From: an uncultured Bacteroidales bacterium
GTDB taxonomy: Bacteria > Bacillota_I > Bacilli_A > ML615J-28 > CAG-698
Assembly (NCBI GenBank): GCA_964411675.1
Contig: CAYPLR010000002.1
Location: 25,536-89,535, forward strand
DNA length: 64,000 nt
Reading direction: 5' to 3'
In this document: positions 14,260 through 64,000 of the stretch, in pieces
How the letters are laid out: each line of letters starts with the position of its first letter
Position numbering within the stretch: the stretch's first letter is position 1
Translations under genes and position numbers: made by a program
The notes under the pieces: model-generated
Seen by the model: the letters and a program-made list of their open reading frames with translations, nothing else
Databases searched by the model: none
Told to the model about the DNA's origin: nothing

Positions 14260-14267
14260 GAGTTTAT

Positions 14268-15371: not shown

Positions 15372-15380
15372 GTGAAATTA

Positions 15381-15417
15381 AAAGCAGTATCCTAAGGGAT
15401 GAACACTGCTTTTTTAT
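15381..15417 (+). terminator. rho-independent terminator
   Basis: AGCAGTATCC-taag-GGATgaacACTGCT followed by T6. Confidence 0.65.
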
Positions 15418-15486
15418 TTATCAATTTGATTAGCGCTTTATTTTTTCAGAAAAATTTGATATAATAACACAAGGTGATTGGCTATT

Positions 15487-16930: not shown

Positions 16931-16934
16931 GAAT

Positions 16935-23395: not shown

Positions 23396-23468
23396 TGTAA
23401 AAAAATGCTTTTGATTTTCTTTATAAAAGCAATAACATGTGGTATAATAATTAAAAAGAGGTATGGTT

Positions 23469-24761: not shown

Positions 24762-24764
24762 AAC

Positions 24765-38800: not shown

Positions 38801-40427
38801 TACGATTCCTTGTGGTATTATTCAGTTTACGTTAGCAACAAATCCAAAAGCAGTTGCTGCCAATCAGTCAGCATGTAAGATGCTTGGATATGCCAATGAA
38901 AAAGATTTTGTTGAGACTGTGGGGAAAGATCTTTCTAACCTTCTTGTAAAAGGAACAAATAAGTTTGTCAATAAACAAACATACAAGGAATTAAAAGAGG
39001 GAAAACAACTCAATTACGAAGTCGAGTTTAAAAAGAAAAACGGTAGTTCAGGTTGGTATCGTATCACGATCTATCAATTAACCAATGTTGAAGGAATAGA
39101 GGTAATTCAAGGAGTATTTATTGACTTTAGCGAAGATAAAACTAAATTGATTACCACGAAAGAAAACATCTCAATTTTAAATCGTTCTCTTGATTTTTTA
39201 AGAGTTGGGGTTGTTTGCTGGGAACAAGATAGCAAAATCAAGATTGCTTTAATCAATAAAAAAATGAGCGAAATGTTGGGTTATTCTCATCAAGAATATT
39301 GTAAATTATTCTCATCGGGTAAAATTGATAATAATACTAAAATAGAAGATCTTAAGTTTAATTATGAGGAATTGAAGAAACTCCAAAGCAACGAAGAAAA
39401 AGTTGTTGAATTAACTAGAAAAGATAATAGTAAAATTATTGCTAAGATTAATTTATCTATCGATACTAGCGAAGGACAAGATTCTTATCAAGCAACAGTA
39501 ATAGATATTACCAAAGAATATCAAGAAAACAAGGAAATAAACAGTAAAATTGATTTATATGAGAATTTATTGTGTATTCCTAAAAGCTATATATTCGATT
39601 ATAATATCAACAGCAAAGTTTTAAAATACTATAGGCCAGATAAAGAAGAAAATAAAGACACGAATATTGTTGAAAACTTCAACACAAAAATTGTGAAATA
39701 TAAAAATATACACGAAGATTATATTAAAGAATTCACAAAAATCTTCTTAAAAAAATACGAACAAGAAACGAAAGACAGTTTAGAATTTCTCGCCAAATTC
39801 AATAGTCCTGATTTCAATTGGTATCGTATTACTTATAAAGTTATTAAGGATGAAGAAAAAAAAGGTTTTCGTGTCATCGGTAGTGTTTGCAATGTTCATT
39901 CCGAAGTAGAAAAAGTAATCAGGATGAAAGAGCGTTCCCAAAGAGACATTATGAGTGGGCTTTACAATCGGGCAGTTACTGAAGAATTGATAAAAAGTAA
40001 ACTTTGTGAAATGAAAAGAAATGAAACATTTACTTTTTATATGATAGATATCGATCAATTTAAAGAAATTAATGATGAATATGGTCATTTAATTGGGGAT
40101 AGATTAATTTTAAAAATATCAAACATGTTAAAGCAAAAATTCGATTCTAAAGCAATCATAGGTAGACTGGGTGGGGATGAATTTGCGGTTTTATCTATGA
40201 CAGAAAACAGTGAAGAAAAAGCAATTCTTAAAGCAGAAGATATTCTTCAAGCGACAAGAGATTTGAGTAAAACAATGAATGTTAAGCTAAAAATTACAAC
40301 AAGTGTAGGGATAGCGATGGCTCCTCGCGATGGAAAAGCATTTAAGACACTATTTATGAATGCTGATAAAGCAATGTATAAAGCTAAAAACGAAGGAAAA
40401 GATTGTTGTAAGGTTTATCAAGACTAA
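35853..40427 (+). CDS. multidomain c-di-GMP turnover/sensor protein: REC-like - PAS - degenerate GGDEF - EAL - PAS repeats - GGDEF
   Basis: 1524 aa. N-terminal CheY-like fold (VIDKDY...LLIILISD...LYKPF). First GGDEF degenerate (RAEADHF in place of RxGGDEF; DID replaced by WNIE). EAL domain with all catalytic signatures (EALARW, QPIY, VNVS, FEITET, DDFGSGYSS, KMDMKF, AEGVET, QGYY). C-terminal GGDEF intact (RLGGDEFAVL). Extended -10 TGtGGGATAAT and RBS AAGAGGAAAA upstream. Confidence 0.85.
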   Translation: MNLKKTILVIDKDYQESIFLNDFLASEFDVLTINDECIINNIINTQKENLLIILISDTFMNENITSKGVIDRIKALKIPLLGIVSQKGNGEEKKFLDLGIIDLLYKPFTYGDVFGEIVNIVKKDKTQKQLQLIMDNITGGVLLIDVGETLRCLYVNQGFFSFSGYSEEKYHQNMQIDIARYIFSEDEPFVRNQLTQAVKDNKPFSFDFRTTIKENEIRWFYAQGTPIKDNETTDSMVLVLLTDITKLKNAEEELSRTSSQLSMIIKNLNCGIAIFLLDEDIELLYGNGTLSKLMGFKNDEIRNLSSESLSKCVYEKDFEKFKKYLKEASQEKTDSKIDIRFIKGNATINWVRFNAERISENSNKSLVYGIFLEINKEKAQEEHTQKTTEELTYRANYDLLTGVFNKTAFCNATYTMLKIYPQKKFILTMWNIEQFKIINDLLGIKTGDRILQIIANRFANILSGQGTYARAEADHFVTCFPKDQFDVEEILNDIVNSIGQLKIQNQIRIVAGIYEVDDINIPVEQMCDRAALAMQTIKGKFLKNFAYYDDHLRLSLVVEREIVNEMIQAIENREFTIYLQPIYSLAKNEVIGAEALARWIHPQKGVISPSVFIPVFERNGFIAKLDYYIWEETCRYIRKRMDENKKLIPISVNVSRLSLYNPFLCEEIVELIDNYGINHNLLRFEITETAYNDNPKQLLSTISKMKKEKLKIMIDDFGSGYSSLNALKEIPVDIIKMDMKFLEGVKESNRADSILTSVIRMAKWIDNPVIAEGVETETQLHFLKSIGCDRIQGYYISPPLPVEQFDKYLESNPKVYIGEAPLQLVVDQLDLGALFSGNPLLTYFLDNIASGVGVYEFYKGNLIGLRVNNAYYKIMGYTKETFLQDAKSILQQVYEEDRKKLIDACKLVISNKKPEKLLFRRYRADKVIIWLDSNINYLGGSKKKPLISITISDVTISVQDRKLLSYQEETIMRSYRFLAKLYDTIPCGIIQFTLATNPKAVAANQSACKMLGYANEKDFVETVGKDLSNLLVKGTNKFVNKQTYKELKEGKQLNYEVEFKKKNGSSGWYRITIYQLTNVEGIEVIQGVFIDFSEDKTKLITTKENISILNRSLDFLRVGVVCWEQDSKIKIALINKKMSEMLGYSHQEYCKLFSSGKIDNNTKIEDLKFNYEELKKLQSNEEKVVELTRKDNSKIIAKINLSIDTSEGQDSYQATVIDITKEYQENKEINSKIDLYENLLCIPKSYIFDYNINSKVLKYYRPDKEENKDTNIVENFNTKIVKYKNIHEDYIKEFTKIFLKKYEQETKDSLEFLAKFNSPDFNWYRITYKVIKDEEKKGFRVIGSVCNVHSEVEKVIRMKERSQRDIMSGLYNRAVTEELIKSKLCEMKRNETFTFYMIDIDQFKEINDEYGHLIGDRLILKISNMLKQKFDSKAIIGRLGGDEFAVLSMTENSEEKAILKAEDILQATRDLSKTMNVKLKITTSVGIAMAPRDGKAFKTLFMNADKAMYKAKNEGKDCCKVYQD

Positions 40428-43217: not shown

Positions 43218-43332
43218 TGAATGATTTAATTAAAATATCTTTCCTTTCATGATAAAATATGATAAGATAAAGAAAAGGAATGGGTGTGTTAGCATCACAC
43301 GAATTCTCATCGCCAAAAAAATGGAGGTGCCT

Positions 43333-44457
43333 ATGAGATATAGAATAGAGAAAGATTCGTTAGGAGAAAAAATTATTCCCGCTGAATCATATTTTGGAAT
43401 TCAAACTCTTCGCTCAAAAGAATTATTTCAAATAACAAAGCATGGTCAATGCCGCCAAAACATTAAGGCTTTTGCCCATGTGAAAAAAGCAGCTGCAAAA
43501 ACTAATCAAGAATTTGGTTTTATTCCTAAGGAAAAAGCAAATGCAATTAGTCTAAGCGCTGATGAGATATTGAATGGAAGACTTCATGGACAATTCGTTA
43601 CAGATTCTATTCAAGATGGCTATGGAATGGGAATGCATATGAATGCCTGCGAGGTAATCGCAAATCGAGCCAATGAGATGCTTGGTGGTGAAAAAGGTCG
43701 CTATGATAAAGTTGACCCAGTAGCAGATGTCAATTTGAATCAAGACAATGAAGAAGTAGTTGTACTAGCAGGAAAAATTACAACCATTCGATTAGTGAAG
43801 AAATTAATGACAGAAGCCAAGAAACTTGTGAATGCTTATTATGACAAAATCGAACAAGCTAATCTTGATAAAGAAGATCCAAAATCATTTGGGTATCAGT
43901 TGGCATCAATGGCAAGTATTTTAGAGAAAGATATCAAACGTCTCGACAAAGCACTAGACTCTATGTTAGAAATTCATTTTGGACTAGCTTTGAATCTTAA
44001 TGAAGAACAAGGAAGAGATGAATATTTAAAAAAATTTGTGAAGAACTTGAGTTTATCTAACAGTGAAAGCTACAACTATTCAAAAAACGCTTTAGATTCT
44101 ATTCGTAGTTTAAATGGTTTTATGATGGTTTCTTCTGTCTTAAAAAATATGATTATTAATTTTTCGAAAATAGCAAGCGATATGAAAATATTATCGAAAG
44201 AAGGAAAAATAAAAATCCCTCAAGTTCAGGATTTTCTAACATTTACGGATAATAATGTCGTTTTAGATATGGTTAGGCAAATCTCATTTTATATTATGGG
44301 AAATGATTTAACGATTTCTCGAGCAGTTGAAGAAGGAGATTTAGGAATCAACATCTTCAAACCAATGATCTTTGCTTGTTTATTTGAAAGTGCCAATTTA
44401 ATTAGAAGAGCTATTAGAACGGTTAGAGAAAAAGTAGTCGAACCAATGCAAATATAA
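43333..44457 (+). CDS. aspartase/fumarase-fold (fumarate-lyase superfamily) protein, truncated and catalytically degenerate
   Basis: N-terminus collinear with AspA/FumC (YRIEKDSLGEKIIPAESYFGIQTLRS; VKKAAAKTN). Signature catalytic blocks are altered (TS of GxxGTSxMN -> MGMHMN; SQSxND -> NQDNEE; no GSSxMPxKxN SS-loop). About 100 aa shorter than class II lyases. GGAGGTG sits 4 nt before ATG 43333. Confidence 0.6.
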   Translation: MRYRIEKDSLGEKIIPAESYFGIQTLRSKELFQITKHGQCRQNIKAFAHVKKAAAKTNQEFGFIPKEKANAISLSADEILNGRLHGQFVTDSIQDGYGMGMHMNACEVIANRANEMLGGEKGRYDKVDPVADVNLNQDNEEVVVLAGKITTIRLVKKLMTEAKKLVNAYYDKIEQANLDKEDPKSFGYQLASMASILEKDIKRLDKALDSMLEIHFGLALNLNEEQGRDEYLKKFVKNLSLSNSESYNYSKNALDSIRSLNGFMMVSSVLKNMIINFSKIASDMKILSKEGKIKIPQVQDFLTFTDNNVVLDMVRQISFYIMGNDLTISRAVEEGDLGINIFKPMIFACLFESANLIRRAIRTVREKVVEPMQI

Positions 44458-44687: not shown

Positions 44688-45485
44688 TTATAGGATAAAT
44701 TTGAAAACAGTTAAGATATCAGTATAATTTGATGATTGACAAATGACACTGTCACTTCCTAAAAGTTTACAACCAGGAAAGAAAGAATTACGATAAGCAT
44801 CAGTATGGCGTTTATATTGTATTTCTATCTCAAATTTTTTTGGTAAAGATACTATATTCTGTGCCAAATCTTTAGTTAAAGCTTGAAAAACGCCTTCTTC
44901 AATTTCTTTACAAGTAATATGTGGATGTTTAGAAATGACAGCATTGAAACGTCCCTCTTTACTAGCTACGGTTTCAATATTAGGATTTATCTCTTTCACA
45001 AGATTTGTTAGGTTAGCATCTCCACTTAAAAAAGCAACGGGTACATTTAATAACGATGCATAATAAGAATTAATAGTAAATTCACTTGCAATTACGTTGT
45101 TTATCTTAACGTAATGAATGTTTGTATTCATGGTGTGGGACAAAGGATTTCCATTTGAGCGTGATGGGCTGTGATAGCCAATAAAAACAACAGCATCAAA
45201 AGAAGAATCTAATCCTGCCATCATACTGCATAGACTGCCTTCCCAACCACGATGAAGCTTAACCATTTCTGGTAAATCAAGAATGTTTAGATTTCTTGCA
45301 CTATCGTGAGCATCTTTAATAACAATTTCTGTTGCTCCTGCACGGATTGCACCCAGACAAGCAGCGTTTACTTCCCTTTGTAATTCTTCTTGAAACTCCT
45401 TATAACGAGGAGAAGAGACTTCTGTTTCTTCCCAATGGCAAATGCCATTGATACCTTCAATATCAATACTTAAAAATACTTTCAT
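44688..45485 (-). CDS. M55-family D-aminopeptidase (DppA-like)
   Basis: MKVFLSIDIEGINGI N-terminus and metal-ligand H/E pattern typical of DppA. AGGAGG sits 9 nt before the ATG. Confidence 0.65.
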   Translation of the reverse strand: MKVFLSIDIEGINGICHWEETEVSSPRYKEFQEELQREVNAACLGAIRAGATEIVIKDAHDSARNLNILDLPEMVKLHRGWEGSLCSMMAGLDSSFDAVVFIGYHSPSRSNGNPLSHTMNTNIHYVKINNVIASEFTINSYYASLLNVPVAFLSGDANLTNLVKEINPNIETVASKEGRFNAVISKHPHITCKEIEEGVFQALTKDLAQNIVSLPKKFEIEIQYKRHTDAYRNSFFPGCKLLGSDSVICQSSNYTDILTVFKFIL

Positions 45486-52671: not shown

Positions 52672-52700
52672 TTGCCAAAATCGAACATTAATGGTATAAT
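52672..52700 (+). promoter_or_regulatory. sigma-A promoter of the SRP RNA gene
   Basis: TTGCCA, a 17-nt spacer, then TATAAT. Confidence 0.65.
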
Positions 52701-52705: not shown

Positions 52706-52830
52706 GGTAATAATCTCGCTTTAAGTACCCATATTCAATATTAAGCAGTGAATCAGGTCAGGTCGTGATTGAAGCAGCCTTAAGCTTAACTTAGTATGTG
52801 AGTATGGGTACTTAAGGTGAGATTAATTAG
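52706..52830 (+). ncRNA. ffs: signal recognition particle RNA (small 4.5S/scRNA type)
   Basis: Conserved domain-IV sequence AUCAGGUCAGGUCGUGAUUGAAGCAGCC (cf. CCAGGUCAGGUCCGGAAGGAAGCAGCC). About 23-bp terminal helix UAAUCUCGCUUUAAGUACCCAUA / UAUGGGUACUUAAGGUGAGAUUA. The tadA-SRP RNA position is as in Bacillus. Confidence 0.8.
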
Positions 52831-52881: not shown

Positions 52882-53859
52882 ATGTTTAAAATTGGAAATG
52901 TAGAAGTGAAAAATTCTATTGTGCTTGCTCCATTAGCTGGATATACAAATCAAGCCTATCGAAAAATAATCAAAGAATTCGGTGTGGGACTTGTTTATAC
53001 AGAAATGATTAGTGCAAAAGGACTCATTTACGATAATGATAAAACTTGGTATTTAACGGAAATAGCAGATAATGAACATCCGATAGCTGTGCAACTATTT
53101 GGTGGAAACGCTGAAGATTTAGTCAAAGCAGCGATTATGATTGATCAAAAAACAAAGGCTGATATTATTGATATTAATATGGGATGCCCAGTAAAGAAGG
53201 TTATCAAAGCTGAATCTGGTGTAAAAATGATGCTGGATATCAAGAAAGCCTACAACATTGTTAGTCAGGTAGTGCAAGCCGTAAAAAAGCCAGTTAGTAT
53301 AAAAATGCGAGCAGGTTGGGATCATCAAAATATCAACTGTTCTGAATTTGCAAAAGCGATGGAACAAGCGGGAGTGGCATTAATTACCATTCATGGTAGA
53401 ACTAAAAGCGATTTGTATGGAGGGCATGTTAACCTAGACTATATAAAAAAGGTAAAAGAAAGTGTTAAAATCCCTGTTATTGGTAATGGTGACATCAAAT
53501 CCGTGAAAGATGCAGTAAAAATGTTAGAGTATACAAATGCCGATGGAATCATGGTTGGTAGGGGAACCTTTGGTAACCCATGGTTAATAAGAGATTTAGT
53601 AGATTATTTCTCTGGTAAAACAACCGATGCACCACCAACAAAAAAAGAAAAAGTCACTATGATTAGACGACATTTTCAAGAATTATTGCAAATAAAAGCG
53701 GAAAAAATCGCAGTATTAGAAATGCGCACATTAGCAGCATGGTATGTGAAGGGATTTCATTACGCAAAAGAATTCAAACAAAAATTAATCAGTATCAAAA
53801 CAAAAGAAGAAATGAATTTACTAATAAATGAACTGGAAAAGAGTATAGACGAGGAATAA
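52882..53859 (+). CDS. dusB: tRNA-dihydrouridine synthase
   Basis: FMN/TIM-barrel motifs LAPLAGYTN, DINMGCPVKKV and catalytic Cys. RBS GGAGAAA. Confidence 0.85.
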   Translation: MFKIGNVEVKNSIVLAPLAGYTNQAYRKIIKEFGVGLVYTEMISAKGLIYDNDKTWYLTEIADNEHPIAVQLFGGNAEDLVKAAIMIDQKTKADIIDINMGCPVKKVIKAESGVKMMLDIKKAYNIVSQVVQAVKKPVSIKMRAGWDHQNINCSEFAKAMEQAGVALITIHGRTKSDLYGGHVNLDYIKKVKESVKIPVIGNGDIKSVKDAVKMLEYTNADGIMVGRGTFGNPWLIRDLVDYFSGKTTDAPPTKKEKVTMIRRHFQELLQIKAEKIAVLEMRTLAAWYVKGFHYAKEFKQKLISIKTKEEMNLLINELEKSIDEE

Positions 53860-53862
53860 TAA

Positions 53863-56070
53863 ATGATAACAAAATCGATGCATGTTCAAGACAATGTTTT
53901 ATATATGGGAGAATATAGTTTAGTAGATCTTGCAAAAAAGTATGGAACTCCCCTATATGTATATGATGAAGTAGGAATAAACAATAAAATAGAAAAATTT
54001 AAAAACAATTTTAAAAGCAATCAATTCGAATGTGAAGTAGTATATGCTTCTAAAGCATTTATCGCACCATATTTATGCAAGATTCTTGCTCAAAATAATT
54101 TTAGTATTGATTCTGTGAGCGAAGGAGATTTATATTTAATTAATAAAAGTGGCTTCCCAATGAATAAAGTAGTTGCTCATGGTAATAATAAACTAATGAG
54201 TGAATTGATGCTAGCTTTAGATTATGGAGTAGAATATTTAGTTGTTGATAATCTTACTGAATTATTAAAATTAGAATATTTAGCTAATCGAAAGCAAAAA
54301 CCCTTAAAGACATTAATTAGAGTTAATCCAGGGATTGAAGCTCATACACATGCTTACATTGAGACTGCAAATTTAAGCTCTAAGTTTGGTGAGTCAATTT
54401 TTGCTACCGATATTTTAGAACAAATGATAGCTGTTTATCGCAATTCAAAATATTTAACTTTAGAAGGATTCCATGCGCATATAGGTTCACAAATTAATAA
54501 TCCCAATAGTTTTCTTTCAGAAGTAAAAACGATGTGTCAATTCATGCGTAACTTTTCAGAAAAAACAGGATTTTCTTTTCGAGCATTAGATATTGGTGGT
54601 GGCTTTGCTATTAAATATTTGGATGATGATGTTGAAATAGATTTACCTACCATGTTACAGTTAATTGTGAAAGCAGTAGAAGAAGAAAATGCAAAATCAG
54701 AAACAATGAAAATTGAAAAATTGATGATAGAACCAGGAAGATCACTAGTAGGTGATTCTGGAGTTACGCTTTATACATGCGGAAGTAAAAAGACAACCTA
54801 TAATGGTAAAAATTATATCTTTGTTGATGGTGGAATGTCAGATAATATTCGTCCCGCTTTATATCAGGCAAAATACTCAGTTGATGTAGTGAATCATGTC
54901 GTTTCACCAACAAAAGAAAAATATGATGTGGTTGGAAAATGCTGCGAAAGCGGGGATATCATTGTCACTGATACAATGATTGGTGAAATTCATAAAGGCG
55001 ACATTATGGTAGTGTATTCTACTGGTGCTTATTGCTATTCAATGTCAATGAACTATAACAGCTTAGCAAGAGGTGCAGTTATTTTTGTAAATGGGGATAA
55101 AATTACAACAGCAATAAGGAGACAAAGTTTTGAACACATGTTTGAAACCTGTGTTTTTGAGGAGAAAGATATGAAGATATTTGATATTCACAGCGATATG
55201 TTATATGATTTGAATAAACAAAGCTTATTAGGAAACCATACAAGATTTAAAGATTACCATGTTCCTCAATTGCAAAATAGTTGCATTAAAGGAGCAGTTT
55301 GGACGATGTATTCACCTGATGATTTCAATTTATTGGAAGCGGTGAAGCGAGCAATCAACAAAATTGATTTACAGGAGTTACCAGGGTTTGAAGTTATCTT
55401 GGGGCTTGAAGGGCTACGAAACCTAGAAAAAGTGGAAGATATCAACCAATTATACGAACTAGGCTTTAGACATGCGATGCTAACATGGAATGAAGAAAAC
55501 AAATATGCGACGGGTGTTGGAGGCAATGCAAATAGAGGATTAACTGAAGAAGGCATACGTCTAGTAAAACGCATGGAAGAACTAGGTATGATTATTGACT
55601 TGGCGCATTTAAATGAAAAAAGTTTTTATGATGTCTTAAAAGTTGTAAACAAGAATATTGTTTATTCTCATGGATGTGTAAAAGACATTTGTAATCATCG
55701 TCGTAATGTCACAAATGAGCAAATGCTTGCTTTAAAAGCAGTTGATGGTTTGTTAGGATTAACACTAGCAAAAAACTTTGTGAGTCCAATAGAAGAAGAA
55801 AAAGATTTGGCCCACTTCTTAAATCATCTAGATAAAGCGATAGATGTAATGGGAATCGATCATGTTTGCTTTGGCTTTGATTTCATGGATTATTTGTCAG
55901 AATTTCCTAATGATAATATCATTGATGTACCAAATGCAACAAAAGCATTTCGCATTATTGATGGAATGAGAGAAAGAGGTTACACGGAAGAAGAAATAGA
56001 AAAGATTTGTTGGAGCAATTTTTACAATCGATATAAAAACAAGGTTGTCTTAAGAGGAGAAAAGAAATGA
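53863..56070 (+). CDS. lysA: diaminopimelate decarboxylase (LysA, aa 1-436) fused in frame to an M19 membrane-dipeptidase-family domain (aa 437-735)
   Basis: N-terminal part has LysA motifs (YASKAF PLP-Lys, GGGF, EPGRSLVGDSG, CCESGD). C-terminal part starts MKIFDIHSDMLYDL with M19 His/Asp/Glu metal ligands. An intact SD GAGGAG sits 6 nt before the internal ATG 55171. The junction is on T5 (55154-55158). Confidence 0.7.
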   Translation: MITKSMHVQDNVLYMGEYSLVDLAKKYGTPLYVYDEVGINNKIEKFKNNFKSNQFECEVVYASKAFIAPYLCKILAQNNFSIDSVSEGDLYLINKSGFPMNKVVAHGNNKLMSELMLALDYGVEYLVVDNLTELLKLEYLANRKQKPLKTLIRVNPGIEAHTHAYIETANLSSKFGESIFATDILEQMIAVYRNSKYLTLEGFHAHIGSQINNPNSFLSEVKTMCQFMRNFSEKTGFSFRALDIGGGFAIKYLDDDVEIDLPTMLQLIVKAVEEENAKSETMKIEKLMIEPGRSLVGDSGVTLYTCGSKKTTYNGKNYIFVDGGMSDNIRPALYQAKYSVDVVNHVVSPTKEKYDVVGKCCESGDIIVTDTMIGEIHKGDIMVVYSTGAYCYSMSMNYNSLARGAVIFVNGDKITTAIRRQSFEHMFETCVFEEKDMKIFDIHSDMLYDLNKQSLLGNHTRFKDYHVPQLQNSCIKGAVWTMYSPDDFNLLEAVKRAINKIDLQELPGFEVILGLEGLRNLEKVEDINQLYELGFRHAMLTWNEENKYATGVGGNANRGLTEEGIRLVKRMEELGMIIDLAHLNEKSFYDVLKVVNKNIVYSHGCVKDICNHRRNVTNEQMLALKAVDGLLGLTLAKNFVSPIEEEKDLAHFLNHLDKAIDVMGIDHVCFGFDFMDYLSEFPNDNIIDVPNATKAFRIIDGMRERGYTEEEIEKICWSNFYNRYKNKVVLRGEKK

Positions 56071-57155
56071 TAAAGGGTAAAGTCGAAGGATTAGATAATC
56101 TAATTAAAAAAGCACTGGAAGATGAAACATTTCCAGGAGCAAACTATTGTTTAATTACTGATAAAGATGAAATCTATGGATGCTTTGGAAAGAAAGCAAT
56201 TTATCCAGAAGTAGAAGAAAATGATATTGATACCTTATATGATATGGCTTCCTGTAGTAAGGTAATCAGCACAACAACTTCGATTATGATGTTATTAGAG
56301 CAAGGTAAATTAAGACTTTATGATTCGGTTAAAAAATATATCCCTCGTTTTCGCTATGATAAGATAACCATATGGGATTTGCTAACTCATTCATCGGGAT
56401 TACCTTCTGATATTATTCGAGCATCTCGATTACAAAGTCGTGAAGAAGCATTGGATAAAATCTTTGATTCGCTATTAATCTACGAAAAAAATACAAAAAT
56501 TGTCTATTCGGATTTAGGATTTATTTTGTTGGGGTTGGTTGTTGAAGAAATCAGTGGAATGAAACTTGATGAGTTTGCTCAAAAAAATGTATTTATCCCA
56601 TTAGAAATGACATCAACAGGCTATAATCCTAAAGATGAAAAAAGATGTGCACCAACAGAAGAACGAAAAGATGATGTATACCATGGGGTTTTACGAGGAA
56701 AAGTCCATGATGAAAAAGCGTATATCCTTGGAGGAGTAGCAGGACATGCTGGACTGTTCTCTTGTGTTAAAGATTTGAGTCATTTTATTAAAATGATTTT
56801 AAATGATGGCGTTTATAAAGGAAAACAAATCTTAAGTAAAGCAACGATTGATTTATTATTTACACCACAAGTAGCCATGAAAAACAGTATCTCTTTAGAT
56901 GACGATACGAGAGGATTGGGATGGATTGTTAGAGGAACTGTATGTTCTGCAGGTGATTTAGCAAGTCCACAAACCATATTACATACAGGCTTTACAGGAA
57001 CTAATATTTTTATTGATCGTATTAACAGGGTTGGTTTTTCTATGCTATCTAATCGTGTTCATCCAACACGGGAGAATGTGAAAATCATACCATTTAGAGG
57101 TATGTTAGGCAATTATATCATAGCTAATTTTGGAGGAAGAAATAATGGAAATTAA
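56067..57155 (+). CDS. beta-lactamase/transpeptidase-fold serine hydrolase (S12-like)
   Basis: SxxK motif MASCSKV, YSDLGF, and HTGFTG. No signal peptide. Start overlaps the upstream stop (ATGA). Confidence 0.7.
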   Translation: MIKGKVEGLDNLIKKALEDETFPGANYCLITDKDEIYGCFGKKAIYPEVEENDIDTLYDMASCSKVISTTTSIMMLLEQGKLRLYDSVKKYIPRFRYDKITIWDLLTHSSGLPSDIIRASRLQSREEALDKIFDSLLIYEKNTKIVYSDLGFILLGLVVEEISGMKLDEFAQKNVFIPLEMTSTGYNPKDEKRCAPTEERKDDVYHGVLRGKVHDEKAYILGGVAGHAGLFSCVKDLSHFIKMILNDGVYKGKQILSKATIDLLFTPQVAMKNSISLDDDTRGLGWIVRGTVCSAGDLASPQTILHTGFTGTNIFIDRINRVGFSMLSNRVHPTRENVKIIPFRGMLGNYIIANFGGRNNGN

Positions 57156-58128
57156 AAGTTTTAATAAGGAAATGGTTAGTGATGTAGTAAAACTATGGAA
57201 TGAGAGTGTTGTACCCTATTCTATATTTGCAGAGTTTACCGATGAAAGCTTCACAGAAAAATTTTTAAACAATCCTTTTTATGATAATGATGGTAGTTGT
57301 GTTGTCTTTGAAAAGGGTAAAATTATTGCTTTTGGTAATGCTACTTATAACAACAATGGCCTAGAACCAGAAAAAACACCAGGATATATTACTTGTATCG
57401 CTGTCGATAAAGATTATTGGCGTCAAGGAATTGGTAGTAAAGTGTTACTTTATCTTGAAACATTCTTAAAAAGCAAGGGGAAAACATTTATTCGTACTTT
57501 TTTCGCAAATCCAATCAACTTAAAATGGTATGTTCCTGGTTATCATAAACACGAACATGCTGGAGCTCCTGCGGTTGAAATCAATAGTCCATTTTACTTT
57601 TTGCTAATGGCCAATGGATATAATACTAATGGCCAACAAGATGCTTATCATGTTGATCTAACAAAATTTAAAATGCCACAAAAGGTATTAGACAAAATCG
57701 CTGAAAATGAAAAAGATGGATATACAATTACTATTTATGATGAGAAAAAGCATCACGGCTTTAATGAGTTGTTTGATGCTTTAGGCAGTGAAGGTTGGAG
57801 ACAAGCAATCAATAATAATCTTGCGAAAGAAAAGCCATTACCAATTTTAATAGTTCAAAAAGATGGAGAAATTCTTGGCTTTACTGGCCCAATTAACAAC
57901 GAACCAAGCGGTAGAGCATATTTAGCGGGTGTAGCAATTCATCCTAAAGCTCAGGCTCGTGGTTTAGGAAAAACGATGTTTTGTTCGTTGTGCCAAGTAT
58001 CCAAAGAAAATGGCTCTACCTTCATGACATTATTTACAGGTTCAGATAACAAAGCGAGAAATATATATCTATATGCAGGATTAAGAGTAATTCGTTCATT
58101 TGCAATTATGAGAAAGGAACTTGTTTAA
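57145..58128 (+). CDS. GNAT-family N-acetyltransferase (tandem GNAT-like domains)
   Basis: Acetyl-CoA motif RQGIGSKVL in the first half and RGLGKTMF in the second half. GGAGGAAG sits 5 nt before ATG 57145. Confidence 0.7.
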   Translation: MEIKSFNKEMVSDVVKLWNESVVPYSIFAEFTDESFTEKFLNNPFYDNDGSCVVFEKGKIIAFGNATYNNNGLEPEKTPGYITCIAVDKDYWRQGIGSKVLLYLETFLKSKGKTFIRTFFANPINLKWYVPGYHKHEHAGAPAVEINSPFYFLLMANGYNTNGQQDAYHVDLTKFKMPQKVLDKIAENEKDGYTITIYDEKKHHGFNELFDALGSEGWRQAINNNLAKEKPLPILIVQKDGEILGFTGPINNEPSGRAYLAGVAIHPKAQARGLGKTMFCSLCQVSKENGSTFMTLFTGSDNKARNIYLYAGLRVIRSFAIMRKELV

Positions 58129-58129
58129 A

Positions 58130-58819
58130 ATGGCAAAAACATTTATGGCAATTGGAGGACATGTTGGTGATATGGAACTAACAGCGGGGTGCGTATTAGC
58201 CCATCAAGCTGTTCACCAAGATAAAATTATCACAGTTGCTCTAACTGCTGGGGAAAGAGGAAACCCCAAAAACATGAGTCAAGCAGATTACCGTGTGCAA
58301 AAAGTAAAAGAAGCACAGGAGTTTGCAGAAATGTTAAATGGTGAAGCAATCGTTCTTGATTATCCGGATGGTGAACTTCCTGATAACGAAGAAGTGAGAT
58401 GGCAAGTAGCCGCTTTAATTAGAAAATATCGACCTAATGTCATATTTACTCATTGGGAAAAAAGCATGCACAAAGACCATGCTACAACAAATAAAATAGT
58501 TGTAGATGCTTCTTTTTGGGCAGGTATCGATGTAGGAAATAAATTAGAAGGAACTCCTTGTTGGGCACCTGTTTATTTTTGTGAAAACTGGGAAGATAGA
58601 GAAGATTTTGATCCTTACATGATTGTTGATTGTAGCGATGGCTATGACTTATGGTGTAAGGCGATTCAAAAACATTGGTTTATTATGAATAGCCCTTCGT
58701 TTAGATATTATGATTATTATACACACTTGACTTATGTGCGAGGAGCATTAGGAAAATATCAACATGCACAGTGCTTCAATGTCAAAGGATATCAAAAATT
58801 TACCAAGGTTACTTTTTAA
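58130..58819 (+). CDS. LmbE/PIG-L-family N-acetylglucosaminyl deacetylase
   Basis: N-terminal AIGGHVGDME (AHxDDE-like) and HxDH block MHKDHATT. Confidence 0.55.
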   Translation: MAKTFMAIGGHVGDMELTAGCVLAHQAVHQDKIITVALTAGERGNPKNMSQADYRVQKVKEAQEFAEMLNGEAIVLDYPDGELPDNEEVRWQVAALIRKYRPNVIFTHWEKSMHKDHATTNKIVVDASFWAGIDVGNKLEGTPCWAPVYFCENWEDREDFDPYMIVDCSDGYDLWCKAIQKHWFIMNSPSFRYYDYYTHLTYVRGALGKYQHAQCFNVKGYQKFTKVTF

Positions 58820-58821
58820 CT

Positions 58822-59760
58822 ATGAAGAATAAACCAAACAAGTTGAAAACGAATGATACCATAGGTTTGGTTTGCCCGGCCTTTAAAAACCCAGATTCCT
58901 CCTCAACAGAAAGAGCAATTGAATATCTTACAAGCAAAGGTTATCGTGTAAAAGTCGGAGAAACTTGCTATGCTAGTGAAGGATACCTAGCGGGAAGTGA
59001 TCAATTACGGGCACAAGATTTGGAAAAAATGTTTCTCGATGATGAAGTGAAAGCAATTATTTGCATGCGCGGTGGTTATGGGGCAAGTCGAATGGTAGAC
59101 TTGATTGATTATGAAAAAATAAAAAACCATCCTAAAACATTTATTGGATATAGTGATATTACTGTATTGCTAAATGCAATTTACCATAAAGCAAAAGTGC
59201 CAACAGTTCATGGAATGGTAGGGTTTGCTTTTGGAACAGAGAAGTTTGCTGGTGAAAGCGAAAACGACTTTTGGAAATTTATACTGGAAAATCAAGAGAA
59301 ACGGGTCTTAAAAGACCCATTAGATCAAACAAAAACCCTAGTAGGAGGGACATGTTGTGGTGAACTTGTTGGTGGTAATTTAAGCTTATTAGCAACAATG
59401 ATCGCTAGCGATTATGGAGCCGATTTCTCAAATAAGATTCTTTTTATTGAAGAAGTCGAAGAGGAACCCTATAAGCTAGATCGATATTTTTCAACTTTAC
59501 GTCTTTCTGGTAAACTTGAAAAAGTAAAAGGATTTGTCTTTGGCTACTTTACAGAGTGTGAACCTTCAGAAAAAAGAAAAGGGACACAGACGTATGTTGA
59601 TCTAATTAAAGAGTATTTTGCTCATTATCAAAAACCTATTATTTATGACTTCCCATCAGGACATTCTTATCCATTCATTAACCTTCCAATTGGTGTTAAA
59701 GTAAAACTAGATGCTGATGAAAGAAGTATAACCATTATGGAAGAATTCTATAAAGAATAA
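58822..59760 (+). CDS. ldcA: LD-carboxypeptidase (S66, muramoyltetrapeptide carboxypeptidase LdcA-like)
   Basis: Catalytic Ser motif FIGYSDITVL, Glu and His (PSGHSYPF) triad context. About 313 aa. Confidence 0.75.
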   Translation: MKNKPNKLKTNDTIGLVCPAFKNPDSSSTERAIEYLTSKGYRVKVGETCYASEGYLAGSDQLRAQDLEKMFLDDEVKAIICMRGGYGASRMVDLIDYEKIKNHPKTFIGYSDITVLLNAIYHKAKVPTVHGMVGFAFGTEKFAGESENDFWKFILENQEKRVLKDPLDQTKTLVGGTCCGELVGGNLSLLATMIASDYGADFSNKILFIEEVEEEPYKLDRYFSTLRLSGKLEKVKGFVFGYFTECEPSEKRKGTQTYVDLIKEYFAHYQKPIIYDFPSGHSYPFINLPIGVKVKLDADERSITIMEEFYKE

Positions 59761-59773
59761 AAAAGGAGAAAGT

Positions 59774-61078
59774 ATGCAAAAAGCACTTAAGAGATTTACA
59801 CTTCCAGGATATGTCACTTATTATGGAACAACCAAAAAGGTTATGATACCTACAGAATATGAAGAAAAAGATGAGGAATTACGAGGAGTATGGTTTTCCA
59901 CTGTTGCTAATATTGACATTCCTCAAATGACTAATCCAGATGAAATTAAGCAATATTTATTGGGAGTTATTCAAAAAGTAAAAGAGTTCAACATGAATAC
60001 TGTTGTCTTTCAAGTTAGACCTATGAATGATGCTTTTTATCCATCAAAACTTAATCCATGGAGTCGTTATATCACAGGAACTGAAGGAAAAGATCCCGGG
60101 TTTGATGTGTTTGGATATTTTGTTGAAGAGGCGAAAAAAGCGGGTATTACAACACATGCTTGGATAAATCCATATCGTGTTACTGGTCAAGAACTGAATA
60201 AAATAAGCAAGACAAAAGAAGAATTCTTAGAAACACTAGATAAGAAAAATTTTGCTCGTAAACATCCTGAATGTGTTATTAAGACATCATTATCAAAACT
60301 AATTCTTGATCCTGCAAACGCTAAAGTTAGAAAGTTTGTTACGGATACGGTATTAGAAATTGCTCAAAACTATGATATAAAAGCTGTCCATATCGATGAT
60401 TATTTTTATCCATATGAACCAATTGCAGATGAAGACGAAGAAAGAAAATTCAAAGAAAGTAAGTTTGATAAACTATCTGATTTCAGAAGAAATAATGTTG
60501 ATAAACTAATTAAAATGATTTCACAAAAGCTAAGAAAACTGGATAAGAAGGTTGAGTTTGGTATTAGTCCTTTTGGTATCTATCGAACGAATTCTAAATT
60601 CTTTGAAAAAGAAGAAGCAGATGAAGCTTCGTGGGACAAAGGTTCTAATAATCATAAAGGTTGCTATAGCTGTTACAAAGGATTATATGCTGATGTATAT
60701 TTGTGGATGAAAAAGAAATGGATTGACTATGTAACACCTCAAAACTACTTTGATTTTAGTAATACTAAAATTGATGAAAAAGGTGAGGAAACTTGTCGAG
60801 TTCGTTATGCTGACTTAGCTAAATGGTGGAGTTGGGTTTCAAAAAAAACAGGGATAAAACTATATATGGGACAAGGATTTTATCGATATTCTGATGAAGG
60901 AGATTGGTCTAATCCAGAAGAAATTATCAATCAATTAAAATTCAATCAGACGTTTCCAAATGTAAAAGGAACTATGTTTTTCACATATAAAAATTTTGTT
61001 GAAGAAAAAGTCCAATCAGCAGTTAAAGCTCGAAAATTATTAAAAGAAATTTGGAAAAATCCAGTAAAAGAAATATAA
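59774..61078 (+). CDS. glycoside-hydrolase-like family 10 (GHL10/YngK-like TIM-barrel) protein, cytoplasmic
   Basis: RGVWFSTVANIDIPQ N-terminal block typical of GHL10. RBS AAAGGAGAAAG. No signal peptide. Confidence 0.55.
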   Translation: MQKALKRFTLPGYVTYYGTTKKVMIPTEYEEKDEELRGVWFSTVANIDIPQMTNPDEIKQYLLGVIQKVKEFNMNTVVFQVRPMNDAFYPSKLNPWSRYITGTEGKDPGFDVFGYFVEEAKKAGITTHAWINPYRVTGQELNKISKTKEEFLETLDKKNFARKHPECVIKTSLSKLILDPANAKVRKFVTDTVLEIAQNYDIKAVHIDDYFYPYEPIADEDEERKFKESKFDKLSDFRRNNVDKLIKMISQKLRKLDKKVEFGISPFGIYRTNSKFFEKEEADEASWDKGSNNHKGCYSCYKGLYADVYLWMKKKWIDYVTPQNYFDFSNTKIDEKGEETCRVRYADLAKWWSWVSKKTGIKLYMGQGFYRYSDEGDWSNPEEIINQLKFNQTFPNVKGTMFFTYKNFVEEKVQSAVKARKLLKEIWKNPVKEI

Positions 61079-61084
61079 AACGAG

Positions 61085-61112
61085 TAGCACTTTTTAGTGC
61101 TACTTTTTAATA
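61085..61112 (+). terminator. rho-independent terminator
   Basis: GTAGCACTttttAGTGCTAC followed by T5AAT. Confidence 0.75.
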
Positions 61113-61218
61113 TAGGAAATAATTGTTAAGATATCTTGTATTTAAAAAAGGTTTCTTAATAAAATGTAATAAAATATATTTGTTAAAACAAAAAACCATA
61201 AATTATTTAAAATTGGTC

Positions 61219-61247
61219 TTGAAAAAAAATCGATTTTATAGTATAAT
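61219..61247 (+). promoter_or_regulatory. sigma-A promoter for the GH20 gene
   Basis: TTGAAA, a 17-nt spacer, then TATAAT. Confidence 0.65.
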
Positions 61248-61312
61248 TGTAGAAACTATTATATGGTTAATTTTTTCCGTTTTGATTAAAAAAATATAAC
61301 TAGGAGAAAGCT

Positions 61313-63190
61313 ATGTATAAGATATACCCTAACGTCAAGAAAATTTCTTTGGGACAAGGAGAGTTTCTTGTAAAAGAAAAATTAACTGTTTTTTTTCAAG
61401 GTGAAAAAGAAAACGTTTTTACCATAACCAAAGAGTTTATTGATGATAAGAAAAAAGTTAATGAAGCAGAAGCTGATATCATTTTCATAAAAGATGAACA
61501 ATTAAGCGAAGAAGCTTACAAGTTAGAAGTCAAAGAAAAGATTTACATTACCTATCAAACAAGAAGGGGAGCACTTTTTGCTCTACAAACATTAAAACAA
61601 ATTGTTAAGCAAGGAAAAACAAAAATAGACTATTTGCAAATATTTGATGAGCCAGATATAAAAATAAGGGGATATATGTTGGATATCAGTCGCGATAAAG
61701 TCCCAAAAATTGCGACAATCAAATCGATCATTTCAAGAATGGCAGAACTAAAGATGAATCATTTTGAATTATATGTGGAAGGATTCTCTTTTGAATATCA
61801 GAGTTTTCACCAATTTTTAGAAGAAGATGGATACATAAGTGTCAAAGAATATCAAGAACTTGAAAATTATGCGAATGATTTAGGAATTGATATGGTACCA
61901 AATCAAAATGGATTTGGTCATATGGCAAAATGGTTAGCAACAGAGGAGTTTAAAGATTTAGCAGAGTGCCCAGAAGGAATTTTCTTATGGGGAAGAAATC
62001 GTGAACCAAGTACATTAAATCCATTGGATTTGCGTTCGCTTGAGCTAATTAGAAAAATGTATTTAGACATGCTACCCTATGCTAAGTCTTCTTATTTTAA
62101 CATGAATTTTGATGAACCTTTTGAATTAGGAAAAGGGAAAAGCAAAGAAGAATGTGAGAAAAAGGGAATTGGCAACGTCTATATTGATTATGTTCTGAAA
62201 GCTTATGAAATAATAAAACAATATCAAAAAACGCCATTAATTTGGGGTGATGTTTTAATTAAACATCCTGACTTATTAGGCCGTTTACCAAAAGATATGA
62301 TTTTTGTTGATTGGGGGTATGATGCAACCCACCCATTTGATAAAAATTTAGGTCTTTTAAAAAAACTTGGAATTTCTTTTATGGCAGCACCAGGTACAAC
62401 AAGCTGGTCGAGTTTTACAGCGCGCAATCGTGATTGGTCAGAAAACATTACTAATGCTTGTTTAGCAGTAAAAAAACATGGTGGAGAAGGTGTTCTCTTA
62501 ACTGATTGGGGAGATTTTGGCCATTTGCAATTCTTACCAATTTCTTATCCAGGGCTTGTTTATATGGGACTATATTCTTGGAGAATGAAAGAAGGAACAT
62601 ACTTAAGTTTAAAAGACTACTTAAACACTTATATTTTCGATGACAAAGCAGAAATTATGGGTGAATGTTTACTAGATCTAGGTAATTACTACCGTTTTGA
62701 AAATGACTATCGTGGCAATGGTGTACCAACATTTTATAATTTTATGTGGGCTAGCCTTGCTAATGGTGAAAAAGATAGTATTCAATATTATATCGACCGG
62801 GTTAAAACAACGTTTTTAAGTGAAAAGAAGTTTGCTTTGATGCAAAGATTTTTGGATTTCAAGGAATTTGAACTTGGATTAACTGAAATGAAATGTAGTG
62901 ATGCTGACTTAATTAAAGCAGAAATGAAGCAAGCGATTCGCTTTATTCGTATGGCACAGAAAGTTAACATCGGTTTAAACAAACAAATTGATATGAATCT
63001 TCGAAAAAAATACTTGGAAGAAATAGTATCTGAAAAGAATAATTTTATAAGTGAACAAAAAAGACTTTGGCATACTAGAAATAAATCGGGGGGATTCAAG
63101 GATAGTATATTCCTTGTAACGGAGTTTATCGACTTTGCTGAAAGCATGTTAGAATTTTTAAATAAAAGAGGTGAAGATTATGAAATCTAA
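61313..63190 (+). CDS. GH20-family beta-N-acetylhexosaminidase-like enzyme (cytoplasmic)
   Basis: GH20 motif IRGYMLDISRDKVP and catalytic D-E pair region NFDEPFE. RBS TAGGAGAAAG. No signal peptide. Confidence 0.7.
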   Translation: MYKIYPNVKKISLGQGEFLVKEKLTVFFQGEKENVFTITKEFIDDKKKVNEAEADIIFIKDEQLSEEAYKLEVKEKIYITYQTRRGALFALQTLKQIVKQGKTKIDYLQIFDEPDIKIRGYMLDISRDKVPKIATIKSIISRMAELKMNHFELYVEGFSFEYQSFHQFLEEDGYISVKEYQELENYANDLGIDMVPNQNGFGHMAKWLATEEFKDLAECPEGIFLWGRNREPSTLNPLDLRSLELIRKMYLDMLPYAKSSYFNMNFDEPFELGKGKSKEECEKKGIGNVYIDYVLKAYEIIKQYQKTPLIWGDVLIKHPDLLGRLPKDMIFVDWGYDATHPFDKNLGLLKKLGISFMAAPGTTSWSSFTARNRDWSENITNACLAVKKHGGEGVLLTDWGDFGHLQFLPISYPGLVYMGLYSWRMKEGTYLSLKDYLNTYIFDDKAEIMGECLLDLGNYYRFENDYRGNGVPTFYNFMWASLANGEKDSIQYYIDRVKTTFLSEKKFALMQRFLDFKEFELGLTEMKCSDADLIKAEMKQAIRFIRMAQKVNIGLNKQIDMNLRKKYLEEIVSEKNNFISEQKRLWHTRNKSGGFKDSIFLVTEFIDFAESMLEFLNKRGEDYEI

Positions 63191-64000
63191 GATTAAATAT
63201 AACCCCGAAGTTACTAAAAAAGTAGTTATATGGCTAATTTTATTAGCGATTGTAGGACTATTTGGTGGTTCAATCGTAAAGAGTTATGAATCAAATCATA
63301 TAACATCTAATTCAAAACTATTGGATGTGGAAATACCATCTGGAAGTTATGAAGATTATCTTAAAGTAAAAGCAGGAATCAATCCCAATCGTTTAGAAGA
63401 ATTCGATTTGGCTGATTATTGGCAATATTTAAGTTTCCCTGAAAATAAAACTATTTATGTAGATGGAAATACAGCAAAAGCTAGTGAAGAAGCTACTGAT
63501 TTTGCTGCTAACTATTTAGTAGATGGCAAAAAAGGTTATTACACAGGAGAAAATGGAACAGCGACTTGGGATGTAAAGAATGTTCCTGAAGCTGGACTTT
63601 ATAACGTGATTATCAACTACTACATGCCACAAGGTGGTGGAAGTAATGCTGAGAGATTAATTAAAATAAATGATGAAGTATTATTCAGCGATTTAAATAA
63701 TATTACTTTTTATCGTGTTTGGGCTGACAAAGGACCCATTGAACAAGACGTTACAGGTAATGATTTAAAACCAACACAAGTAGAAATATTTTCAGAGAGA
63801 ACTAATTATTTACGTGATGAAACAGGATATGTAGCAGAACCGTTTATGATTTATTTCAAAGCAGGTGATAACACAATTTCATTTACATCATTACGAGAAA
63901 ACTTAGTAATTTTTAGCTTTGAAATTGTTTCAGTTAAAACTAGTTTGACCTATGCAGAATATTTAGAAGAAAACCAAGATAAAGCAATAGGTAGCAATCA
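63180..64000 (+). CDS. membrane-anchored extracytoplasmic protein, 3' end outside window
   Basis: GAGGTGA sits 6 nt before ATG 63180. N-terminal TM VVIWLILLAIVGLFGG. Open frame to the window end (>273 aa). Absent from the ORF track because no stop is reached. Confidence 0.55.
   Translation, partial: MKSKIKYNPEVTKKVVIWLILLAIVGLFGGSIVKSYESNHITSNSKLLDVEIPSGSYEDYLKVKAGINPNRLEEFDLADYWQYLSFPENKTIYVDGNTAKASEEATDFAANYLVDGKKGYYTGENGTATWDVKNVPEAGLYNVIINYYMPQGGGSNAERLIKINDEVLFSDLNNITFYRVWADKGPIEQDVTGNDLKPTQVEIFSERTNYLRDETGYVAEPFMIYFKAGDNTISFTSLRENLVIFSFEIVSVKTSLTYAEYLEENQDKAIGSN

Follow-up and report, generated by a model that had tools for sequence, protein, structure and literature searches.

Our understanding of peptidoglycan recycling comes mainly from Proteobacteria and a few Firmicutes and treats it mostly as a way of rebuilding the cell's own wall. 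In E. coli it runs through AmpG, NagZ, AmpD, LdcA, MpaA and Mpl, and the meso-diaminopimelate (meso-DAP) that is released can be used for lysine. The C. acetobutylicum rescue system, with MurK and GlmA, cleaves muropeptides inside the cell; to our knowledge, no LysA, M19, S12 or S66 module has been described for it. The muropeptide rescue operon of B. subtilis is murQ-murR-murP-amiE-nagZ-namZ (PMC8054146, PMC5061867), and Tannerella forsythia, an auxotroph for N-acetylmuramic acid (MurNAc), scavenges exogenous murein sugars (PMC5790795, PMC6721243). Here we analyse a locus on a 64-kb stretch of DNA from an uncultured bacterium (positions 25,536 to 89,535 of contig CAYPLR010000002.1, assembly GCA_964411675.1; hereafter the window) in which the gene for LysA, a predicted meso-DAP decarboxylase, is fused to that for an M19 dipeptidase-family protein. 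Sequence comparison leads us to favour, with moderate confidence, a two-unit locus that would serve the uptake and cytoplasmic catabolism of muropeptides, its peptide branch ending in lysine. Coordinates are those of the window, all features of the locus lie on the + strand, and the map of open reading frames (ORFs) was cross-checked with gene calls on an identical public contig (L004).

The likeness to E. coli lies in the dismantling of muropeptides in the cytoplasm by an enzyme removing terminal N-acetylglucosamine (GlcNAc), an amidase and an L,D-carboxypeptidase, after which DAP can reach LysA. The parts differ: an ABC importer with a giant sugar-binding protein (SBP) would stand in for AmpG/Opp, a GH20 enzyme for the GH3 enzyme NagZ and an S12 enzyme for AmpD, and a GHL10 protein is added. 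The window locus is without MpaA and Mpl, and its LysA lies in the operon, fused to M19, with lysine rather than wall synthesis as the proposed end. Pfam and NCBIfam searches of the window locus returned no AmpG, GH3, Amidase_2, M14 MpaA or Mpl, which leaves the S66 family alone in common. With B. subtilis the locus shares a sequential logic of exo-GlcNAc-ase, MurNAc-L-Ala amidase and muramidase. However, B. subtilis secretes its enzymes and takes up only monosaccharides and peptides, whereas the window enzymes have no signal peptides; the glycosidases are GH3 and GH171 in B. subtilis and GH20 and GHL10 in the window; the window cluster lacks MurP and MurQ, and the B. subtilis operon lacks a peptide-degrading or LysA module. 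Intracellular muropeptide cleavage and a tandem GNAT acetyltransferase are shared with C. acetobutylicum, and the related gene run of Haploplasma modicum, described below, also has a BadF-type kinase and MurQ. Like T. forsythia, the carriers of the locus are proposed to rely on cell-wall fragments of their neighbours; T. forsythia builds its own wall from MurNAc, whereas the window pathway appears to be degradative, lysine being its distinctive output. By these comparisons the locus appears to resemble canonical peptidoglycan recycling in function without being a member of it.

The case for one system begins with gene order. Our scan took one genome per species, was seeded with the M19 half of the fusion and covered 79 loci (numbered with the prefix L), against whose ORFs the window proteins were BLASTed. 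About 45 species-level genomes, with amino-acid identities of 50-65%, share the order LysA(::)M19, S12, GNAT, (PIG-L), (S66), GHL10, (QueH), GH20, giant SBP, permease, and the same order recurs on metagenomic contigs that are only about 55% identical. Such an arrangement is far beyond chance. The initial annotation had named synteny and co-occurrence as a check, and loss of the gene order in relatives, combined with a full dap pathway elsewhere, as a sign against its proposal; the order is kept, and S66 is found only together with LysA. More distant, Erysipelotrichaceae-type clusters hold S12, GNAT, PIG-L, M19, GHL10 (two or three copies), GH20, SBP and permease, without LysA and without S66. 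In the window, a packed run of seven genes extends over 52882-61078, as first described, with junctions that range from an 11-nucleotide (nt) overlap to a 13-nt gap; the six genes from 53863 to 61078 overlap or abut.

At the head of these six genes stands one uninterrupted ORF of 735 residues (53863-56070), so that the fusion first put forward as a possibility is real in the window, and it recurs in other species. Residues 1-432 (53863-55158) form the LysA domain, of the type that depends on pyridoxal 5'-phosphate (PLP), and residues 437-735 (55171-56070) the M19 domain of the renal-dipeptidase family; the four residues between them, EEKD (55159-55170), link what the junctions of fused and split orthologs indicate to be the native ends of the two proteins, the C-terminus of LysA and the N-terminus of M19. 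Where the genes are split, LysA ends in '...TC[NVD]F' plus 2-4 residues and M19 begins with MKIFD, while the fused form joins these ends by 4-6 residues; the free-standing M19 of L005, for instance, begins with MKIFD at the position equivalent to the M19 start in the fusion. LysA and M19 make up one ORF in 27 species-level genomes and adjacent overlapping genes in 16. Among the best 120 protein clusters, 108 carry LysA plus M19 at ~730 residues, and 11 other full-length ones are free LysA. On the M19 tree one large clade is occupied by the fused state, and at least two or three switches are seen elsewhere. We found no description in the literature of a LysA-M19 fusion or of lysA inside a murein-catabolic operon, in keeping with the initial remark that the arrangement is not a textbook one.

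Both halves retain the signatures of their families. The LysA half scores 404.9 bits with the equivalog model TIGR01048 (cutoff 297.9), rival NCBIfam models (DokD, the exosortase-associated decarboxylase, SpeA) all remain far under their own cutoffs, and solved DAP decarboxylase structures match the domain at E 1e-73. The motifs YASKA, HxHxGS, GGGF, EPGR, CESGD and RPxLY, which LysA structures associate with the PLP lysine and with substrate binding, are all present, are kept in 41-45 of 45 orthologs and are invariant in an alignment of 38 fused proteins. We therefore predict that the domain is a meso-DAP decarboxylase. The M19 half scores 203.8 bits with PF01244 (gathering cutoff 26), and H443, D445, E544, H582, H603, R614 and D673 are invariant in the 38 fused proteins and in free-standing orthologs. 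The set of zinc ligands (HxD, the bridging Glu, two His), catalytic Asp and carboxylate-binding Arg is thus complete. Its relatives include GliJ and renal dipeptidase.

Renal dipeptidase and the bacterial M19 dipeptidases Sco3058 and Lmo2462 prefer L-Xaa-D-Xaa dipeptides. The window M19 shares with these bacterial enzymes the binuclear-zinc amidohydrolase fold and all of its ligands; unlike them, it is fused or translationally coupled to LysA and belongs to a clade specific to the cluster. We propose that it releases meso-DAP, cleaves L-Ala-D-Glu, or does both. As the fusion is inherited across 27 species and adjacency is strict elsewhere, the physical or translational coupling would point to meso-DAP as what connects the two activities. 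The D-configured C-terminal residue that M19 enzymes accept would then match the D-centre of meso-DAP that LysA decarboxylates, in which case peptides attached through the amine of the DAP D-centre, that is, remnants of cross-links, would be natural substrates.

Two further enzymes fit a peptide branch. The S12 serine hydrolase (56067-57155), which overlaps LysA::M19 by 4 nt, is of the PBP4B (YfeW) type: it is 33% identical to PBP4B/YfeW of E. coli K-12 over nearly the full length (392 residues, E 3e-59). The alignment begins at YfeW residue 39, the first 38 residues are missing, and there is no hydrophobic N-terminus, unlike in the exported type. Its catalytic motifs are SCSK, YSD and HTG (SxxK, YSD and HTG are kept in 52-54 of 54 orthologs), and the unusual YSD second motif is common to it and E. 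coli YfeW. The 120 best homologs are all annotated 'serine hydrolase' or 'CubicO peptidase'. AmiE of B. subtilis (YbbE) is itself an enzyme of the S12/beta-lactamase fold. In E. coli yfeW is the third gene of the murQ-murP operon for MurNAc recycling (PMC5061867), and in B. subtilis amiE, coding for a MurNAc-L-Ala amidase, holds the equivalent place (PMC5061867, PMC8054146). The initial annotation was right about the S12 family and too general about the enzyme, in which it saw a D-stereospecific peptidase; a murein hydrolase of PBP4B/AmiE type is more likely, and we propose a MurNAc-L-Ala amidase or a DD-peptidase acting on stem peptides.

The S66 peptidase of the LdcA/MccF family (58822-59760) has both S66 domains (PF02016 143 bits, PF17676 119 bits) and the nucleophile motif GYSDIT, with G[FYL]SD[IV]T in 35 of 35 orthologs. 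Its longest ORF starts at GTG 58771; ATG 58822 is preferred by the gene caller and by the overlap pattern. S66 accompanies 29 of the 39 LysA clusters and none of the seven complete LysA-less clusters (Fisher p ~4e-4, kinship being ignored). Its confinement to clusters with LysA favours a DAP-related role, and we propose an L,D-carboxypeptidase that takes D-Ala off the tetrapeptide. In L026 a single ORF of 654 residues (11927-13891) seemingly fuses a GlmA-like GNAT to S66; it would be either a second fusion in the same pathway or an assembly or frameshift artefact. The window also encodes, 8 kb upstream of the operon (44688-45485, - strand), an M55 D-aminopeptidase of the DppA type (Pfam 270 bits; NCBIfam DppA 132 bits, below the cutoff), another predicted enzyme for peptides with an N-terminal D-amino acid.

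The glycan side starts with the GHL10 TIM-barrel protein (59774-61078, 434 residues, PF02638 180.8 bits). It aligns with Cwp19 of C. difficile (5OQ2) at E 1.8e-71 and about 45% identity and keeps W36, Q77, W127, R132, D195, D196, Y197, S250, Q295, Y297, G328 and F367 of Cwp19, the sole change among the proposed active-site residues (PMC5765458) being S368T. Cwp19 has been shown experimentally to be a murein lytic transglycosylase (PMC6016235). It is a secreted autolysin anchored to the wall by CWB2 repeats; the window protein has a single domain, no signal peptide and no CWB2 repeats, and so would have to act on imported oligomers. We propose that it cleaves the MurNAc-GlcNAc bond in the cytoplasm. 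In the LysA-less clusters of L063, L064, L067, L069-L071 and L073, two or three tandem GHL10 paralogs flank M19, and some of them, at 730-850 residues, have long C-terminal extensions.

The tandem GNAT acetyltransferase (57145-58128, 327 residues) has two GNAT domains. A profile of 16 orthologs matches PDB 5KF1 (328 residues) at E 3e-15 over positions 8-290, which takes in both domains, the next match being at 5e-9; a single-sequence search gives only E 3e-5. The entry 5KF1, the only significant solved relative, is the glucosamine N-acetyltransferase GlmA (PMC10936415). The window protein is a remote homolog of GlmA and a candidate glucosamine or glucosaminide N-acetyltransferase, and in this remoteness it differs from the C. 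acetobutylicum system. In the course of cell-wall rescue, according to work of Reith and Mayer from 2011 (cited in PMC4974736), GlmA re-acetylates glucosamine (GlcN) where it forms the non-reducing end of a muropeptide. It also acetylates chitosan oligomers.

The second transcription unit encodes the GH20 exo-beta-N-acetylhexosaminidase (61313-63190; PF02838 52.5 bits, PF00728 50.3 bits) and the SBP. The catalytic D-E pair of GH20, in FNMNFDE, is kept in 47 of 48 orthologs, and the solved structures nearest to the protein are of intracellular enzymes, GcnA (2EPK) and GH20C (5A69). The ORF that starts 11 nt inside GH20 (63180-64000) is the N-terminus of a membrane-anchored CUT1-type SBP of ~1040 residues, with a transmembrane anchor and a beta-sandwich-like region, and is cut by the end of the window; on the identical contig L004 the full product has 1039 residues, with SBP_bac_1 and SBP_bac_8, and its C-terminal third (~350 residues) resembles sugar- and oligosaccharide-binding proteins. 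Two ABC permease genes follow the SBP in L003 and about 15 other loci. GH20, SBP and permeases form a unit of exo-glucosaminidase and importer that is part of the system. As the initial annotation had it, the enzymes lack signal peptides and GH20 has a predicted promoter of its own and is followed by a membrane-anchored protein: none of the enzymes has a hydrophobic N-terminus (Kyte-Doolittle maximum 0.2-0.8) and only the SBP has one (2.95), while an intrinsic-terminator-like hairpin (61082-61105; 10-bp stem with four GC pairs, T-rich tail) closes the first unit and a promoter-like site, TTGAAA-17-TATAAT (61219-61247), precedes the second, a consensus match only (11 of 12 positions).

Much of this glycan machinery could also suit chitin or chitosan oligomers or other GlcNAc glycans, handled by GH20, PIG-L, GNAT, SBP, permeases and perhaps GHL10, with the peptidases unrelated and LysA biosynthetic. 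Besides the activity of GlmA on chitosan oligomers and the oligosaccharide-binder-like C-terminal part of the SBP, the PIG-L protein weakly matches diacetylchitobiose deacetylases (E about 1e-8), L001 has three GH18 genes upstream, and non-murein activities are reported for members of GHL10 (PMC9967864). We nevertheless consider this explanation improbable. M19 and S12 accompany the glycan genes even in the distant LysA-less clusters, LysA is fused to M19 in so many species and tracked by S66, GHL10 is about 45% identical to a proven murein lytic transglycosylase, and MurQ, whose substrate is a sugar specific to murein, is part of the H. modicum run.

This run, of co-directional genes, was found in the cultured mollicute H. 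modicum ATCC 29102 (L050 393-13317). It encodes a BadF-type (MurK-like) kinase, MurQ (48% identical to E. coli MurQ), a small GNAT, a GH20 of GH20C type, an esterase and a NAGPA phosphodiester glycosidase, and further two proteins without assignment (191 and 806 residues), M19, PIG-L, a GlmA-like tandem GNAT and a HAD hydrolase. MurK we take to be a BadF-family kinase, and Haploplasma (Acholeplasma) modicum to be wall-less. The run looks like an operon for MurNAc and murein catabolism in an organism without murein; if H. modicum is indeed wall-less, it keeps MurNAc machinery to which the trio of M19, PIG-L and GNAT belongs. The window, too, has a BadF/BcrAD-family ATPase directly after a GH4 glycosidase gene (23463-25781, + strand), weakly similar to GlcNAc kinase (NagK 84 bits). 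Considered as a possible MurK ortholog, it shares only 26% identity with the MurK-like kinase of H. modicum; a role as an amino-sugar kinase in the same catabolism is possible.

The PIG-L/LmbE-family protein (58130-58819, PF02585 80.6 bits) is the least certain member. Aligned to TT1542 and BshB, it reads H-V-G-D-M-E where the family has H-P-D-D-x-E. Of 30 orthologs, 28 have H-[IV]-G-D-x-E and all have H[KR]DH. The zinc ligands are present in the window protein, as the equivalents of H13 and D16 in GHVGDME and as HKDH. The protein represents a distinct subfamily whose chemistry may differ from deacetylation. Together with the tandem GNAT it recalls MshB and MshD, and TIGR04001 (BshB1) and mshD models give 81 bits and a weak match. 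One could thus read PIG-L, GNAT and M19 as mimics of MshB, MshD and a Cys-Gly dipeptidase in a module for a low-molecular-weight thiol or, alternatively, read S66, S12 (of beta-lactamase fold) and M19 (a family able to open beta-lactams) as detoxifying peptide or beta-lactam antibiotics, with S66 nearest to MccF immunity proteins among solved structures and M19 related to GliJ and renal dipeptidase. To both ideas we give very little credence: the enzymes are all cytoplasmic, many of the hosts probably have no wall target for beta-lactams, there is neither a glycosyltransferase nor a Cys ligase, GlmA is by far the nearest to the GNAT among solved tandem GNATs, and LysA, GHL10, GH20 and the sugar importer are left unexplained.

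The muropeptide route that we favour instead can be drawn step by step from homology and context. The membrane-anchored giant SBP and the CUT1-type ABC permease would import glycan-peptide fragments. The GlmA-like GNAT would re-acetylate GlcN at the non-reducing ends of de-N-acetylated murein, and GH20 would then remove GlcNAc from these ends; the first of these reactions would enable the second, because GH20 needs the acetamido group. The PBP4B-like S12 enzyme would free or trim the stem peptide, the Cwp19-like GHL10 would cut the MurNAc-GlcNAc bond, and S66 would take the terminal D-Ala off the tetrapeptide. M19 would hydrolyse L-D bonds, the candidates being mDAP-D-Ala, L-Ala-D-Glu and mDAP-mDAP cross-link remnants, and so free meso-DAP, whose D-centre the fused LysA would decarboxylate to give L-lysine. 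The initial proposal of muropeptide dismantling that leads to lysine, made from the family assignments, all of which we reproduce above the Pfam gathering thresholds, is supported by the conserved order, the fusion, the link of S66 to LysA and the Cwp19-, PBP4B- and GlmA-like enzymes.

A number of findings weigh against this route or parts of it. The locus has no gamma-D-Glu-mDAP hydrolase of the MpaA or YkfC type, so the release of free DAP from the tripeptide is unexplained, and there is no MurQ or MurK in or beside the LysA-containing clusters. S12 scores 194.9 bits with NF002968 (PBP4B/YfeW), under the equivalog cutoff of 385, and is a homolog of YfeW, not an equivalog. S66 is likewise under the equivalog cutoff of the LdcA model NF008424 (151 against 378 bits), has B. 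anthracis MccF as its best PDB match (5e-40, LdcA structures following at 1e-25 to 1e-31) and is missing from 10 of the 39 LysA clusters. Where the PIG-L family canonically has its general-base Asp, the window protein has Gly, as do 28 of 30 orthologs. For this reason the LmbE-type GlcNAc deacetylase of the initial annotation keeps its family and not its activity: we do not call it a deacetylase with confidence, and list it as an uncertain candidate for a deacetylase or amidase acting on an amino-sugar derivative. Rigid packing of the fused domains was considered and rejected, since an AlphaFold 2 (AF2) monomer, with a confidence score (pLDDT) of 89 for the domains and ~70 for the junction, shows no fixed interdomain geometry (pTM 0.64); substrate channelling is for the same reason unsupported. 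Rfam scans of the window and seven loci found no lysine riboswitch or T-box before the cluster, and returned only the RNA of the signal recognition particle (SRP), tRNAs and a tyrS T-box. Close to the cluster, relatives retain genes for aromatic and methionine biosynthesis, so that an ordinary dap pathway with a biosynthetic role of LysA is possible. Finally, the ML615J-28 family CAG-698, to which L032 belongs, is predicted to be mostly walled, with m-DAP-type synthesis (PMC10868615).

The last point bears on whose murein is consumed. With the same enzymology, the cell could recycle its own thin m-DAP-type wall, LysA draining surplus DAP. The fused cluster in L032 (Coprobacillus sp. CAG:698) speaks for this, as do the envelope genes of the window: over 12856-18971 (+ strand) there are a DltB-like MBOAT (154 bits), a DHHW protein and a sulfatase-family protein that is LtaS-like (at 131 bits it falls far short of the cutoff), which suggests modification of a lipoglycan or a teichoic-acid-like polymer. 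The Erysipelotrichaceae-type clusters without LysA, moreover, adjoin a MurC-like ligase. The hosts point the other way. The nearest genome (91-96% identity) is a metagenome-assembled genome labelled Acholeplasmataceae, and other carriers are labelled Acholeplasma sp., Tenericutes, Mollicutes, Bacilli or 'Coprobacillus sp. CAG:698'. [quoted passage not shown] Neither murein-synthesis nor dap genes occur in the 64-kb window or in any LysA-cluster flank, a sampling too thin to prove absence, and a low-power search of the window and 1.45 Mb of flanking sequence with Asd, DapA, DapB, DapF and Mur proteins of E. coli had no match in LysA-containing loci. H. modicum, presumably wall-less, keeps MurQ, GH20, M19, PIG-L and GNAT, and the extra ~700-residue region of the surface-anchored giant SBP suggests capture of external polymer fragments. 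Recycling of the cell's own wall as the purpose of the locus is, in our judgement, unlikely. Since the hosts belong to lineages in which the wall has gone or is being lost, foreign murein shed by other bacteria is the probable substrate; scavenging is at least as likely as self-recycling, the latter being possible in thin-walled members.

The ligase genes lie just upstream of the LysA-less clusters in L067 (3233-4513), L073 (1093-2358) and L071 (1-1029), and in L067 the ligase is followed by a LacI regulator and tyrS. As a candidate Mpl the L067 ligase was rejected: it scores 263 bits with the NCBIfam murC model against 123 with mpl, both below the cutoff, and is MurC-like. It may be a ligase for peptide re-use in walled relatives, in contrast to the LysA/S66 branch of the Acholeplasma-like clade. 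A step beyond the scavenging of foreign murein is the idea, which we put forward tentatively and regard as doubtful, that in Acholeplasma-like Bacilli that are wall-less or unable to make DAP, LysA survives as a salvage enzyme rather than as the last step of a biosynthesis, and the murein of others, on which these cells would partly live, is the source of lysine. The lack of LysA and S66 in the core module of walled relatives would mean that loss of the wall went along with recruitment of the lysine branch.

If our reading is correct, the locus represents a largely non-orthologous cytoplasmic route, tied by a fusion to lysine formation, in lineages that are shedding their wall. It would give a clade of bacterial M19 enzymes a physiological substrate class and the PBP4B and GHL10 families intracellular roles, and it would explain the retention of lysA in reduced Mollicutes-like genomes. 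Abundant uncultured Bacilli of guts and digesters would be consumers of muropeptides, which also signal to host immunity, and there would be a nutritional clue for their cultivation.

The first gene of the packed run, dusB (tRNA dihydrouridine synthase B, 52882-53859; TIGR00737 378 bits, cutoff 293), had initially been counted as part of the system. It lies 3 nt from LysA::M19 with no terminator between them, and the two are probably co-transcribed. In five relatives (L003, L007, L029, L041 and L074), however, dusB lies 1.1-3.8 kb off the cluster, and in L007, L041 and L074 it is still paired with the gene for the bacterial small SRP RNA, which in the window lies between a tadA-like deaminase gene and dusB (52722-52817, Rfam scan, 53.4 bits). 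On this synteny we reject dusB as an operon member and regard it as a detachable neighbour of the cluster. A strong promoter-like site at 52672-52700 was rejected as the promoter of dusB or the operon as well: it is directly 5' of the SRP RNA gene and is the promoter of that gene.

A second tRNA-modification gene, queH (epoxyqueuosine reductase), interrupts the cluster between GHL10 or S66 and GH20 in L001, L003, L018, L020, L025, L027-L029, L037, L040, L042, L044, L046 and L055; queH and dusB thus repeatedly accompany the locus, with no obvious functional link. In L042 genes for a metB-like Cys/Met PLP enzyme and for metA (homoserine O-acyltransferase) follow between queH and GH20 (14593-16873), which indicates that some carriers retain amino-acid biosynthesis. 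Taken together, the genes inserted in related clusters (LytTR, M64/LRR, MetA/MetB, an aldo-keto reductase, DUF6273) gave no coherent extra clue. Elsewhere in the window, a cyclic-di-GMP protein of 1524 residues with multiple PAS, EAL and GGDEF domains (35853-40427, + strand) and a BspA-type leucine-rich-repeat surface protein with Listeria-Bacteroides repeats (34150-35622, + strand) are both unusual in reduced Mollicutes-like genomes. An aspartase/fumarase-family ORF of 402 residues (43249-44457, + strand) aligns only to positions 1 to ~390 of models of ~470 residues and may be truncated at its C-terminus.

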